NCBI GenBank assembly: GCA_024790105.1
Contig: GCA_024790105.1_3053.1
DNA length: 64,000 bases
DNA from: a phage
Reading direction: 5' to 3' (one strand)
Position 1 is the first letter of the stretch. Every line of letters begins with the position of its first letter. The notes under the pieces were generated by a model. It made no database searches. It was not told the DNA's origin and worked only from the letters and a program-made list of their open reading frames with translations. Of the stretch, positions 3,656-12,511 are shown piece after piece. The translations under genes and the position numbers were made by a program.

Positions 3656-3958
3656 TTATTTATCTTTAATTACTTTAGCTGCTTCGATAGCCGCTTGCTG
3701 AAGGTCATCCATAGACATACCGAATTTAGAAGCAAAGTTATCAATTTTCTTTTCGACAGCATTCAAAGGCTTGGCCTGTTTACCTTCATTAGCGCCAGGA
3801 AGAGCGAGAATACGCTCTTTGTCAATATAAAGGCTTACAAGTTTCTTACGGTCTTTATCGGACAAATCATGAAATGAATGGGCCTTTTTATTTATAGCGG
3901 CTTCTAATTTACCTGCACTCACTCGCGCTTCAGTAATAAATTCTTGATATGTTTTCAT
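3656..3958 (-). CDS. internal head protein with capsid targeting sequence (IPII/IPIII-like)
   Basis: 100 aa; N-terminus MKTYQEFITEA matches the T4 internal-protein capsid targeting sequence with a following L-x-E protease site; located next to e. Confidence 0.65.
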   Translation of the reverse strand: MKTYQEFITEARVSAGKLEAAINKKAHSFHDLSDKDRKKLVSLYIDKERILALPGANEGKQAKPLNAVEKKIDNFASKFGMSMDDLQQAAIEAAKVIKDK

Positions 3959-4020
3959 ATGTTTCCTTTAAATGTAAATATTTTAATTGGTAATTGACTG
4001 TTCAAATAACTGTGAATATA

Positions 4021-4049
4021 TATTATCACAATTCTAGGAGAAAGTAAAC
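4021..4049 (-). promoter_or_regulatory. early-type promoter module upstream of the internal-protein gene
   Basis: minus strand GTTTAC - 17 nt - TG-ATAATA; repeat of the module at 3624..3653. Confidence 0.45.
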
Positions 4050-4053
4050 AACT

Positions 4054-4548
4054 CTATAGATTTTTATACGCGTCCCAAGTGCCAGTTCTAAACGTAGCAA
4101 TGACTCGTTTTGCGCGGTTAGGTGTTTGATTATACCATCTACTTTTAGCTAAGTTAACTGCTGCTTCATCCCAGCGTTTTTGTTGAAGCATACGTAAAGA
4201 ATTAGTAAATCCTGCCACACCGGTTTCTCCCATCTGGAAAACCATATTAATTAATGCACAGCGACGAACAGCATCAAGAGAATCATAAACCGGTTTTAAT
4301 TTAGCATTTCTCAGAATTCCGCGAACAGCAGCATCAACATCCTGATTAAAGAGTTTTTCAGCCTCGTCTTTGGTAATTACACCATTGCAATTACGCCCAA
4401 TAGCTTTATCTAATTCAGATTTAGCAACACTTAGTGATGGACTTTTTGTAAGCAAATGACCGATGCCAATAGTGTAATAGCCTTCTGTGTCTTTATAGAT
4501 TTTAAGTCTAAGACCTTCATCTATACGTAACATTTCAAATATATTCAT
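4054..4548 (-). CDS. e: endolysin (T4 lysozyme)
   Basis: 164 aa, [35 protein letters not shown]... essentially identical to T4 lysozyme. Confidence 0.97.
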
Positions 4549-4561
4549 AATACCTCCTAAG

Positions 4562-4582
4562 TATTTATAGAAGGTATTTATA
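4562..4582 (-). promoter_or_regulatory. two tandem late promoters (TATAAATA on minus strand) upstream of e
   Basis: plus-strand tatttata at 4562-4569 and 4575-4582 = TATAAATA on the coding strand, in the 37-nt gap between nudE and e. Confidence 0.6.
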
Positions 4583-4585
4583 AAA

Positions 4586-5041
4586 TTAAAAGAGGTTGTT
4601 CATTATTCGGTAAAGTGAAGGACCCATCACATATTGCCACTGAGTACGAGGAATAAGAGCAAAAGCGTCCATCTCTGGAATCATAACGCCATCTTTATTT
4701 TCAAAATAAGACTCGCAACGGCAATTTCTGAACATCTCATGCTCTACTGGAATCGTATAATAAAATAACTGTAAGTCTTTATTACTAGAATATTTAAATA
4801 CACCTAGGTCTTCTAGAAGGTCTGGATTATAATTGCTAAAACCGGTCTCTTCTAAACATTCTCTTCGTGCTGCATCTAATGCGCTTAAATCAGAATTTTC
4901 TACACGGCCCTTTGGAATATCCCAGCGATGTGCCATCATTCCAGGCTTACGAGAACCAGTAACCCGACCCATAAATAAATCTTTATCTTCTGTCATAAAG
5001 ATAATACCAGCTGATAGTGTTTTCATTTTAATTTCCTGCAT
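4586..5041 (-). CDS. nudE: Nudix hydrolase NudE
   Basis: 151 aa; Nudix box [24 protein letters not shown]; position immediately beside e as in T4. Confidence 0.85.
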
Positions 5042-5511
5042 TCAGTGATAAAGTTATTTAAATTTTGAGTATATTTCTTTTCATCAAAAATCTTTTGCTG
5101 TCTGCGTAACCGCCATGGCATTTCAATGAACATACGCCATATTCCTGATAATACTGCTGCTGTAAAAATATTAACAAGTATAGTTAAAAGAACCCAATCT
5201 CCTATTCTGTCCATTGGATTTTTTATAAAAAAGTAAAATACGAACGATGATATAGGAAGACTAATGATATACCACAGAAGAACCTTCTTATCTGTGAACC
5301 AATCAGCATTCGTTAACTTAGCGCGACCGTTTTGAATACATACGAACTTATCATCTGTTACAGTAAATGGCTTAGCTGCTTGATATCCCATTCTAAACTC
5401 CCTAATCAACAAATTTTTCATATCTTCGGAACAACCATTCCAGTCAACTCTATCAACTGAAATGCCATCATCCCCATCATCTAAATCATACCAGCGAGTT
5501 TTTAAAATCAT
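5023..5511 (-). CDS. hypothetical membrane protein (e.2 position)
   Basis: 162 aa with two hydrophobic helices; start/stop overlaps with neighbours. Confidence 0.5.
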   Translation of the reverse strand: MILKTRWYDLDDGDDGISVDRVDWNGCSEDMKNLLIREFRMGYQAAKPFTVTDDKFVCIQNGRAKLTNADWFTDKKVLLWYIISLPISSFVFYFFIKNPMDRIGDWVLLTILVNIFTAAVLSGIWRMFIEMPWRLRRQQKIFDEKKYTQNLNNFITECRKLK

Positions 5512-10583: not shown

Positions 10584-11216
10584 TTATTTATTACGTGAAA
10601 AAGACTGTTCTATCAATTCTGGACACTTTCGTTCTATCCATTTTCTAGCTTTTTGTGGGCTTATACCTATTATTTTAGCAGCTTTACTAACCCATCCAAA
10701 TTTAGAATAATCGATTTTAACTAATTCTTCGTAAATTTCATCAGTTAAAATCTTTTCATTAATATTTACCAGTAAATGATATAATTTGTTATCATTAGCA
10801 ATTTTAATGAATCTTTTATAGTTTCCGCCTTTACTTAAACCTAATGAAGTAATTGCAGATGATATAGTAGCCGAATTTAATAATGCGTTTAAAATTTCTT
10901 CATCACTAACATTATAACGCTTTTTATTATTTTTAATATTTTTACCAGCAAAAGTATCAGTTTGCGAGTGACAGTTTGGACATAATAATCTTAAATTTGA
11001 TTTAAGATGATTTTTGTTATTTCCATCAATATGGTCTAATTGCAGAACAATATGCTTATTTTGCCATTTTGAAATTTTACAAATTGCACACTCATATGGA
11101 AAAATATTTTCTTTTATTATTTTGTCTTTCAGCTTTCCTGTGCTAAAATTTGGGTGTTTTCCTTCAAAAATTTCAGCTAATTTAGTATCCATAATATGAT
11201 TCCCAATTATTAACAA
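10584..11216 (-). CDS. HNH homing endonuclease (paralog of 9846..10307)
   Basis: motif LDHIDGNNKNHLKSNLRLLCPNCHSQ; stop codon lies 6 nt upstream of the tRNA-Leu 5' end. Confidence 0.75.
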   Translation of the reverse strand: MLIIGNHIMDTKLAEIFEGKHPNFSTGKLKDKIIKENIFPYECAICKISKWQNKHIVLQLDHIDGNNKNHLKSNLRLLCPNCHSQTDTFAGKNIKNNKKRYNVSDEEILNALLNSATISSAITSLGLSKGGNYKRFIKIANDNKLYHLLVNINEKILTDEIYEELVKIDYSKFGWVSKAAKIIGISPQKARKWIERKCPELIEQSFSRNK

Positions 11217-11302
11217 AGGCTCTCAAGCAAGAACCCTTGATGATAGAGGGTATTAATCAGTGCGATATGAGTTAATAATAACAAATAATTCTTAAAGCAT
11301 AT

Positions 11303-11590
11303 TTACCATTTATGATAATACATATTTACGATGCATTCAAGACCCAAAGGATTCTTGAAAATATCATATTCAAGAGGACCTTTTTCTGTTTCAATAAAGA
11401 AATCAAAATTTACTGTATTAAATTTACGGTCTTCCTTCACTAATTTAACTTGAGAAGATGAACGGTCAATGTAAACCTTTTCAACTTCAAAACATGTTAA
11501 AACGCCATAATCATCAATCAAGGCTTTAGCCGCGTCTTGATCATATTTATATCCATTTTCAATGGATGATACTTTCGCATAAAGAATCAT
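11303..11590 (-). CDS. hypothetical protein
   Basis: 95-aa ORF in minus-strand operon. Confidence 0.4.
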   Translation of the reverse strand: MILYAKVSSIENGYKYDQDAAKALIDDYGVLTCFEVEKVYIDRSSSQVKLVKEDRKFNTVNFDFFIETEKGPLEYDIFKNPLGLECIVNMYYHKW

Positions 11591-11592
11591 TA

Positions 11593-11997
11593 TTAACCTT
11601 TATCAACAATAGTATGTGTATGGGCATTTACGATTTGCCACCAGTCAAAACTATCGCCAAATCGTTTTGATTTATTGTCTTCAATAATTTGGCGTAATTC
11701 ATCTTCTGTTTCAGCATACGCAATCAAATCATCATATCCACCGCAAGGATAGTAATTATCGCCTGCGAACAAAAGAAAATTTACTTTAGATGGGTCTATA
11801 TAATAATGCTCTTTAGGATATTTAGTTCCTTTCCAATCAGTTACTTCAACATAATGGTAAGAAAATCCATTTTTACTTTCAACCCAACTCCACGCTTCAA
11901 AAGGAGTATTAAAAACTCTATCAGGTATTAAATTACCTTCAAAATGAGAAGGATTTGCATAATCCCCAGCATAAACATAATATTCGTTAATATTCAT
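11593..11997 (-). CDS. hypothetical protein
   Basis: 134-aa ORF, stop adjacent to the next start. Confidence 0.4.
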   Translation of the reverse strand: MNINEYYVYAGDYANPSHFEGNLIPDRVFNTPFEAWSWVESKNGFSYHYVEVTDWKGTKYPKEHYYIDPSKVNFLLFAGDNYYPCGGYDDLIAYAETEDELRQIIEDNKSKRFGDSFDWWQIVNAHTHTIVDKG

Positions 11998-12183
11998 TTA
12001 TTCACCTTTAGAAATTTTATCCATAACGATAGCAATTAAACCAATTAAAAATGCTACTACAAGTGAAAACACATTTTCTGCTGTAGTTAATAATCCACAT
12101 ATAAATCCAACAAACATTGAAAAACTAAAAGCGGAAGCAGAAATTGCAATAGCAACATTTCGAATTAATTCACAACGTTTCAT
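11998..12183 (-). CDS. small hydrophobic (membrane) protein
   Basis: 61 aa dominated by two hydrophobic helices. Confidence 0.4.
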   Translation of the reverse strand: MKRCELIRNVAIAISASAFSFSMFVGFICGLLTTAENVFSLVVAFLIGLIAIVMDKISKGE

Positions 12184-12211
12184 TTTATTCTCCTCGGTAG
12201 TTGATAGGGTA

Positions 12212-12241
12212 ATAGTATCACAACTAAAACCCTATGTAAAC
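12212..12241 (-). promoter_or_regulatory. early-type promoter module
   Basis: minus strand GTTTAC - 18 nt - TACTAT with conserved upstream TTTCACAAAGTTG element. Confidence 0.45.
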
Positions 12242-12253
12242 AACTTTGTGAAA

Positions 12254-12511
12254 TTATTTTAAATCTTCTAATCGTTTCTTCATCTTAGAACCATTTTTAG
12301 CAATTTCTCCTGCATCGGAGCATAATGCTAAAAGTGCTTTAACTTTAGTTTGGTCTCCTTTAAAAGATGAAGGATCGACTGCAGCAGCAAGTTCTTTAAT
12401 ACGAGAGAAAAGACGCTCAGCTTCAGCTAAAGCCATTCCAAGCTTTACTTCCATGCCATGAGAAGATTCAGTAATAGTAGTTTTTGTAGCAAACTCTTTG
12501 AAAGTTTTCAT
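12254..12511 (-). CDS. internal head protein with capsid targeting sequence (ipI position)
   Basis: 85 aa; N-terminus MKTFKEFATK resembles the capsid targeting sequence; adjacent to 57B as ipI is in T4. Confidence 0.6.
   Translation of the reverse strand: MKTFKEFATKTTITESSHGMEVKLGMALAEAERLFSRIKELAAAVDPSSFKGDQTKVKALLALCSDAGEIAKNGSKMKKRLEDLK

Follow-up and report, generated by a model that had tools for sequence, protein, structure and literature searches.

Internal proteins are cargo that the T-even phages inject ahead of gene expression. We describe here three genes for proteins of this type in a phage DNA of 64,000 nucleotides (contig GCA_024790105.1_3053.1 of NCBI GenBank assembly GCA_024790105.1), referred to below as the window, which represents a segment of a Tequatrovirus (T4-like) genome. 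Two of the genes encode the already known internal proteins Ip2 and Ip5, and the only new element is the gene between them, which specifies a protein of 157 amino acids (aa). Our analysis leads us to consider it probable that all three genes encode T4-type cargo of the prohead core, with the 157-aa protein as a hitherto unrecognised internal protein at a third locus.

Mapping of the capsid-targeting sequence (CTS) of T4 IPIII by the Black laboratory assigned residues 4 and 7 to targeting and residues 8 and 10 to processing (PMC9026906). T4 IPI, a protein of 95 aa, loses 19 residues to yield the 76-residue IPI* (PMC3012670). The literature refers to "the two Ip loci" of these phages, and each of the T4 proteins Ip1, Ip2 and Ip3 inhibits a GmrSD type IV restriction enzyme of a different kind (PMC12373910); that of Ip2, reported in 2025, is the GmrSD/BrxU enzyme of E. 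coli ECOR21 (PMC12373910). An Ip6-like protein of phage Bas37 (Bas37_0260) inhibits McrBC (preprint 10.1101/2025.11.20.689424). Since 2025 all of the internal proteins with a known target have been restriction inhibitors, so that any newly found family may point the way to a defence of the host or to a stage of head assembly. A mechanism proposed for the exchange of Ip genes is the shuffling of elements that combine an early promoter and a stem-loop (PeSL; Comeau 2014, PMC4122927), for which the PST/T4 promoter consensus is TTTACW-N17-TAYWAT (PMC4122927).

A first-pass annotation of the window, made from the sequence alone, had drawn attention to three open reading frames (ORFs) with the N-termini MKTYQEFITEA, MKSYTQFLNEA and MKTFKEFATK, and all three were found, on the minus strand, where it had placed them. 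These ORFs, their N-terminal signals and the two head genes with which the signals would interact are the following.

3656..3958, minus strand: ip2 (internal protein II), 100 aa, predicted mature start A11; 94% identity to T4 IPII over all 100 residues; full-length match to phrog_7857 'internal virion protein', E 7.7e-55
8062..8535, minus strand: candidate internal protein of 157 aa, RB32ORF132c / bas37_0244 family; phrog_2280 'unknown function', E 3.6e-59
12254..12511, minus strand: ip5 (internal protein 5), 85 aa, predicted mature start S16; 100% identity to Ip5 of RB15, T2 and T6; phrog_3499 'internal head protein'
3929..3958, minus strand: CTS codons of ip2, MKTYQEFITE, cut predicted after E10; Y4, F7, I8 and E10 as in the CTS of T4 IPIII and IPII
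8491..8535, minus strand: CTS codons of the 157-aa protein, MKSYTQFLNE/AVLNE/A (slashes mark predicted cuts), with two L-N-E sites; Y4, F7, L8 and E10 present
12467..12511, minus strand: propeptide of Ip5, 15 residues, IPI-type, MKTFKEFATKTTITE/S; aligns with the T4 IPI propeptide MKTFKEFTSTTTPVSTITE/A
44839..45474, plus strand: gene 21, prohead protease predicted to cut the propeptides; 99.5% identity to T4 gp21 over all 212 aa
45508..46314, plus strand: gene 22, scaffolding core protein with CTS affinity, its core role being known from PMC9026906; 98.5% identity to T4 gp22 over all 269 aa

A CTS-type pattern was run over all 1072 candidate N-termini of the window (start/ORF combinations of 40 aa or longer) and matched 3 of them, which belong to the same three ORFs; the mean number of matches expected by chance was 0.04 (100 codon-block shuffles). 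Comparison by BLOSUM62 with the N-termini of the named internal proteins of T4, PST, T2 and RB51 gave the three N-termini scores of 47, 46 and 29, the last of these for the 157-aa protein, against 19 for the best other N-terminus in the window and 27 for the best among 200 shuffled windows. Each protein has the targeting residues (Y4/F7 in Ip2 and in the 157-aa protein, F4/F7 in Ip5) as well as sites of the I/L-x-E type recognised by gp21, namely I8-T-E10 in Ip2, both L8-N-E10 and L13-N-E15 in the 157-aa protein, and I13-T-E15 in Ip5. The claim that all three begin with a motif of about 10 residues that is cut by gp21 fits the sequences of Ip2 and the 157-aa protein but not that of Ip5, which has a propeptide of the longer, IPI type: with A at residue 8 and K at residue 10, its predicted cut is after I13-T14-E15, as in T4 IPI (I17-T-E19), and not after residue 10. 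With its two L-N-E sites, the 157-aa protein is predicted to have its mature start at A11 or A16, and the predicted N-terminal peptides after processing are AVLNEASSTEIQAVAK or ASSTEIQAVAK.

Beyond these signals the three proteins are unrelated to each other, as the first-pass annotation had also maintained. Pairwise BLASTP aligns only the N-terminal 13-44 residues, and profile-profile comparison aligns the CTS alone. The three proteins matched no Pfam or NCBIfam family above threshold, and the sole weak Pfam match, of Ip2 to DUF7412, probably reflects the common CTS only.

The N-terminal signal of the 157-aa protein has been conserved across its family. In an alignment of 21 sequences, which includes proteins of Escherichia, Salmonella, Klebsiella, Yersinia and Enterobacter phages together with unnamed metagenome sequences, position 4 is F or Y in 21 of 21, position 7 is F in 18 of 21 (otherwise I, V or L), position 8 is L in 21 of 21 and position 10 is E in 19 of 19. 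Positions 2, 3, 5 and 9 are variable, and positions 4, 7, 8 and 10 are the best-conserved N-terminal positions of the family. Identity between clades is 49% in the propeptide and 15% in the C-terminal domain. The codons for L8 and E10 differ synonymously among homologs (TTA/TTG and GAA/GAG), which argues for selection on the protein. A profile search of 1.84 billion representative proteins retrieved only 15 clusters for the family, with sizes of 61-203 aa save for one 1397-aa protein with short partial matches; a CTS-like N-terminus was present in all eight of the members whose sequences were retrieved, and one distant member has a later cut site of the IPI type, MISFNEFVDGNLITE/S (LITE/S).

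The protein itself, of 17.3 kDa before processing, is basic (isoelectric point 9.5) and free of cysteine, as are the T4 internal proteins. Its AlphaFold2 model has a mean predicted local distance difference test score of 81, with low confidence for the N-terminal 15 residues, and consists of a helical domain (residues 18-75), a linker rich in Lys, Pro and Ala, and a helical hairpin (residues 88-154). By BLASTP and by profile-profile comparison, its mature part showed no similarity to IPI, IPII, IPIII, Ip4 or Ip5 beyond the CTS, and fold and family searches were uninformative. Homology to IPIII or Ip4 was considered and rejected, the CTS alone being alignable. Such homology is not truly required for membership among the internal proteins, since the named ones are mutually unrelated.

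The 157-aa gene, which belongs to neither of the recognised Ip loci, has e.8 on one side and rnaC/tRNA-Arg on the other, and is accompanied by the following elements.

8576..8583, minus strand: T4-type late promoter TATAAATA, exact match, 40 nucleotides (nt) upstream of the ATG of the 157-aa gene
8581..8616, minus strand: upstream copy of a 36-nt direct repeat (D2), rnaC terminator, hairpin at 8613-8590; copies 100% identical and 559 nt apart
8022..8057, minus strand: downstream copy of D2, terminator of the 157-aa gene, hairpin at 8054-8031

The TATAAATA of this gene is created where the tail of the terminator, GGTAT, meets AAATA (GGTAT/AAATA). In alignment with T4, which has a single copy of the repeat and nothing between, the 157-aa gene appears as a 559-nt indel bounded by the perfect 36-nt repeat. 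The same arrangement of tRNA cluster, small-RNA region, terminator, TATAAATA and gene exists in Klebsiella phage KEN39 (Jiaodavirus), Enterobacter phage Entb_43 and Yersinia phage fHe-Yen9-01; in Klebsiella phage P545 (Marfavirus) the homolog is also adjacent to tRNA genes, with only a CATAAATA variant of the promoter and no evident hairpin. A recent insertion of the gene was considered and rejected, the tRNA-adjacent position being conserved in four other genera. This conservation suggests instead an ancestral origin of the third locus, from which T4, T2 and PST would have lost the gene through recombination between terminator repeats. Its absence from these three phages agrees with a gene that is dispensable on standard laboratory hosts.

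The 157-aa gene is matched by 512 phage records; among the 40 matches listed, 36 are annotated as 'hypothetical protein' and 4 have no coding sequence annotated. The named members of its two protein clusters are likewise all uncharacterised. In RB51 the homolog, ORF140, is described as 'RB32ORF132c hypothetical protein, flanked by 34 bp imperfect direct repeat', by annotators who did name Ip4 and Ip5 in the same genome, and our literature search for the name 'RB32ORF132c' found no paper. The family has thus apparently not been called an internal protein before, with a mention in Repoila et al. 1994 or Comeau & Krisch 2005 being possible.

The number of CTS genes at the e.8/rnaC locus differs between phages.

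No CTS gene: T4, T2 and PST
One CTS gene: this window, RB51 and PD112
Two CTS genes: Bas37/KarlGJung and Yersinia phage fHe-Yen9-01

The additional gene of KarlGJung (= Bas37), bas37_0243, is located at 5866-6429 (minus strand) of that genome, between e.8 and the ortholog of the 157-aa gene, and is absent from the window. It is annotated as hypothetical and encodes a 187-aa protein with a CTS (MKTYAEFLTE/AAKLPSEADL...). The HIDEN-SEQ transposon data class it as 'Essential', insertions having been recovered at 1 of 48 TA sites and with near-zero counts in all hosts (10.1101/2025.11.20.689424); an essential CTS protein of this kind would be unusual. In fHe-Yen9-01, positions 2422-3537 (plus strand), downstream of the tRNA genes, contain two CTS-bearing paralogs in tandem, of 189 and 178 aa, with one terminator-plus-TATAAATA element; both have linkers rich in K, P and A and a common TPDLY motif. 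The product of the extra gene of this phage, P0092, starts MLQYNEFLKE/SLISE/A and is a distant homolog of the 157-aa protein (E 6e-7, full length). The product of bas37_0243 appears to resemble P0092 at the N-terminus. The protein P0011 (94 aa, on a 2.9-kb metagenome contig) comes from a chimeric ORF that is like trna.3 (window 11593-11997) in its N-terminal part and ends, over some 30 residues, with the C-terminus of the 157-aa family (KENPHAHSLEYVEDIQKIIKDRIWSAKQIK); P0011 is evidence of recombination between the trna.3 and 157-aa loci.

For ip2, the names of the cluster members (internal head/virion protein or Internal protein II) agree with its identification. In the window neither denV nor ipIII is found between e and vs.8, so that ip2 directly follows e in this phage. 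The regulatory elements near the gene are these.

4018..4049, minus strand: copy of a 32-nt repeat (D3) upstream of ip2, early-promoter-like; copies 97% identical and 396 nt apart
3622..3653, minus strand: copy of D3 downstream of ip2, found by repeat search
4562..4569 and 4575..4582, minus strand: two late promoters TATAAATA (exact matches) upstream of gene e, the nearest candidates for late expression of ip2

The 32-nt repeat contains TTTACT-N17-TAATAT, an approximate fit to the PeSL consensus. After injection, the Ip2 of this phage would most likely block a type IV restriction enzyme of the GmrSD/BrxU type, as T4 Ip2 does, to judge by the similarity of the two sequences.

The ip5 gene is likewise bracketed by copies of a repeat.

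12531..12599, minus strand: copy of a 69-nt repeat (D1) upstream of ip5, early promoter plus stem-loop (PeSL-type); 86% identity to 12201-12269
12201..12269, minus strand: PeSL-type copy of D1 downstream of ip5, found by repeat search

This repeat contains TTTACA-N17-TACTAT and a stem-loop, and fits the PeSL consensus. A third and more diverged copy (61%) is located at window 7853-7921 (minus strand), upstream of e.8 and adjoining the 157-aa cassette. Each of the three CTS genes is therefore a cassette with a copy of some directly repeated regulatory DNA on either side, a structure that explains the gain and loss of such genes by recombination.

What Ip5 does in the host can be approached through its Bas37 ortholog, bas37_0261, which was scored 'Non-essential' in the HIDEN-SEQ data (18 of 18 TA sites hit) and whose insertions were depleted on the uropathogenic E. 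coli strain CFT073 (log2 fold change -2.09, adjusted p listed as 0.00000) and not on the four other clinical isolates, CFE299, CFE303, CFE331 and CFE336 (10.1101/2025.11.20.689424). The CFT073 signal comes from Extended Data Table 7 of that preprint and is undiscussed in its main text. Insertions in 57B, which is upstream of bas37_0261, gave -1.56 on CFT073 (10.1101/2025.11.20.689424), possibly as a polar effect. We consider that Ip5 probably counters a host-specific defence.

The way in which the three proteins might reach the host can be outlined from their T4 counterparts. During prohead assembly the N-terminal CTS would bind each protein to the gp22 scaffold, and gp21 would then cut after the Glu of the I/L-x-E site, that is, after E10 in Ip2 (ITE), after E15 in Ip5 (ITE), and after E10, E15 or both in the 157-aa protein (LNE). 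The small, basic mature proteins would stay in the head and later be injected together with the DNA. The 157-aa gene, which follows the tRNA/rnaC cluster, would be transcribed from the late promoter that precedes it, and late expression of ip2 and ip5 would need read-through from the TATAAATA sequences at 4562-4582 and 13637-13644. We infer the packaging, cleavage and injection of the 157-aa protein, as well as all anti-defence activity in this phage, from the observed features of the sequences and from homology.

A number of observations weigh against this assignment. Neither ip2 nor ip5 has a late promoter of its own; no TATAAATA belongs to ip2, and both genes have promoters of the early type only. 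In published assays of ip4-10, Ip5 included, against GmrSD variants of 15 groups, no reproducible target was found (PMC12373910). A count-based position-specific scoring matrix, trained on six near-identical Tequatrovirus CTSs, ranked the N-terminus of the 157-aa protein 4th, below one internal-start decoy, which implies that its likeness to a CTS lies in conservative substitutions (S for T, Q for E, L for I) and not in identities; it has 5 of the 10 residues of the nearest named CTS. This matrix was dropped, as it did not separate the 157-aa protein from the decoy, and the substitution-matrix score and the motif of the four functional positions were used instead. No inspected record annotates the 157-aa protein as an internal protein, and no peptide of a homolog was present in the searched part of the virion mass spectrometry supplement for the Jiaodavirus phages ValerieMcCarty03/04, a result that is not evidence of absence; a literature search for the virion proteomes of fHe-Yen9-01 and ACG-C40 yielded nothing useful. 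If the points on the 157-aa protein were taken at face value, it might be an unpackaged, cytoplasmic product of late infection, in which the CTS likeness is due to chance or to some translation-related trait. We regard this as very improbable, because the positions conserved in the family are exactly the four that were mapped in IPIII, despite C-terminal domains that have drifted so far apart between clades, and because the synonymous variation at L8 and E10 points to selection at the level of the protein. The BLOSUM score above that of all 200 shuffles, the late promoter, which fits a virion component, and the alternative IPI-type cut site of distant members are further arguments for a packaged protein.

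It is more difficult to decide what a packaged 157-aa protein would do, and here it is possible, if on balance rather doubtful, that it functions in the structure or assembly of the head interior (as a scaffold-associated or DNA-organising protein) and is not an injected anti-defence effector. The family occupies a fixed, syntenic position across several genera of T4-like phages, unlike the hypervariable Ip genes of the patchy, fast-swapping ipI locus, and the modelled succession of helical domain, Lys/Pro/Ala-rich linker and long helical hairpin might suit such a role. Mutants of IPIII have slower head assembly and a reduced burst (PMC9026906), and the neighbouring bas37_0243, which resembles the distant paralog P0092, was scored as essential in Bas37. 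Against the structural proposal, the Bas37 ortholog bas37_0244 was scored 'Non-essential' (insertions at 29 of 34 TA sites; HIDEN-SEQ, 10.1101/2025.11.20.689424), and T4, T2 and PST do without the gene. Insertions in bas37_0244 gave no significant change in fitness on CFT073, CFE299, CFE303, CFE331 or CFE336 versus K-12 (log2 fold change -0.30 to +0.39, adjusted p = 1), a point in favour of the structural proposal, so that an anti-defence role of the 157-aa protein has no support yet from this quarter. Six hosts are a small sample of defence repertoires, however, and the phenotypes of internal proteins are host-specific and can be masked by O-antigen (PMC12373910), for which reasons the null result neither supports nor excludes such a role. 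Against a purely structural function there is also the record of the internal proteins with a known target, four of four of which (Ip1, Ip2, Ip3 and Bas37_0260) are restriction inhibitors. A broader version of the structural proposal, which we put forward tentatively, is that the tRNA/rnaC-e.8 slot is a third, ancient Ip locus for a late-promoter-driven, CTS-targeted superfamily of two-domain helical proteins that might have its function in head assembly or in the organisation of the DNA, either in place of anti-restriction or in addition to it, with the bas37_0243-type paralog being essential and the 157-aa protein of the window dispensable.

Our preferred reading remains that the 157-aa protein is an internal protein, whatever its activity in the host may be. 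The further suggestion of the first-pass annotation, that all three are candidates for injected anti-defence effectors, can be upheld for two of the ORFs, which are orthologs of Ip2 and Ip5 at the two classical Ip loci in a phage that has gp21 and gp22, with Ip1-3 of T4 being published inhibitors; for the 157-aa protein, the transposon data on its Bas37 ortholog give no host-specific requirement in the six hosts. On the whole that interpretation is supported as right, yet most of it was already known.

The surroundings of the three genes are those of a T4-like phage. Megablast of positions 3000-13500 matched 1142 phage records, with Escherichia phage JEP6 at the top (95% identity, 91% of the query), and the gene order matches that of T4: vs genes, e, nudE, e.2-e.8, tRNA cluster, trna.2-4, ipI locus, 57B/57A and gene 1. 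All genes of the stretch from vs to gene 1, including the three CTS ORFs, are on the minus strand, and the head-morphogenesis set of gp20, gp67, gp68, gp21, gp22, gp23 and gp24 is on the plus strand of the window. The window contains 24 copies of TATAAATA versus 10.8 expected, mostly before plus-strand late genes.

Some local peculiarities were also seen. Genes vs.8 and vs.7 form a single 309-aa ORF at window 2677-3606 (minus strand); at the same point T4 and PD112 end vs.8 with ...RPQFFVIGMQ and a stop codon, with a 4-nt overlap into vs.7, and the window reads on in one frame. The fusion amounts to a frame change of 1 nt, which could be real or a sequencing error. The tRNA cluster (window 8930-11216, minus strand) retains only four intact tRNAs (Arg, Met, Gly and Leu) and is broken by three endonuclease-like ORFs, one of the GIY-YIG type resembling segB at 9010-9675 and two HNH-like ones at 9846-10367 and 10584-11216; beside them are partial tRNA remnants (Rfam) at 9803-9855 and 10333-10395. 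The exact sequences of Ip2 and of the 157-aa protein are recorded as 'hypothetical protein NZD16_000171' and 'NZD16_000180', respectively, of Escherichia coli. NZD16_000180 is on a contig of 171,081 bp, which is also the longest contig listed for Ip2, and it appears that a complete T4-like phage genome was deposited within the assembly of a bacterial isolate.

If it is packaged, the 157-aa gene product would add a further locus to the two from which internal proteins are recognised to come. The gene is carried by about 500 sequenced phages, among them candidates for phage therapy and the BASEL phage Bas37. The genetic tools and transposon libraries that exist for Bas37 make the prediction cheap to test. 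What the present analysis adds is an apparently unrecognised family of internal proteins at a third locus, the cassette structure of the three genes, and the signal of Ip5 on CFT073, which is a ready lead to the target of Ip5.

How these genes compare with those of described systems may be put as follows. The CTS of T4 IPIII (MKTYQEFIAE) and that of the 157-aa protein have in common the aromatic residue at position 4, Phe at 7, Leu or Ile at 8 and Glu at 10, and the two proteins are similar in size, basic, free of cysteine and expressed late (as predicted for the 157-aa protein from its promoter sequence). They have nothing alike beyond the CTS (hhalign probability 4%), and the 157-aa protein is unlike IPIII in being encoded at the e.8/rnaC locus rather than at e/denV and in having a second L-N-E site five residues downstream of the first. 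Ip2 is much closer to its T4 equivalent: its CTS is that of T4 IPII save for A9T, both genes adjoin gene e, and the two proteins differ by six substitutions in all, which might bear on target specificity. Ip5, which is said to have been named in 1994 by Repoila et al. in connection with polymorphism of the ipI locus, is in the same slot in the window as in RB15, T2, T6 and RB51, between 57B and trna.4, and does not differ in sequence from that of RB15. Bas37_0260, from a close relative of this phage, is a small Ip6-like protein with the same N-terminal packaging signal; its gene is absent from the ipI locus of the window, which has ip5 alone, and the 157-aa gene is outside both recognised loci.

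With regard to the arrangement of the cassettes, Arbiol reportedly described PeSL elements in 2010 as mobile regulatory cassettes of the T4-like phages. Both ip5 and ip2 are bracketed in the same manner by repeated early-promoter/stem-loop elements that fit the consensus. The 157-aa cassette is unlike them in that its repeat is an intrinsic terminator, which supplies part of a late promoter and not an early one.

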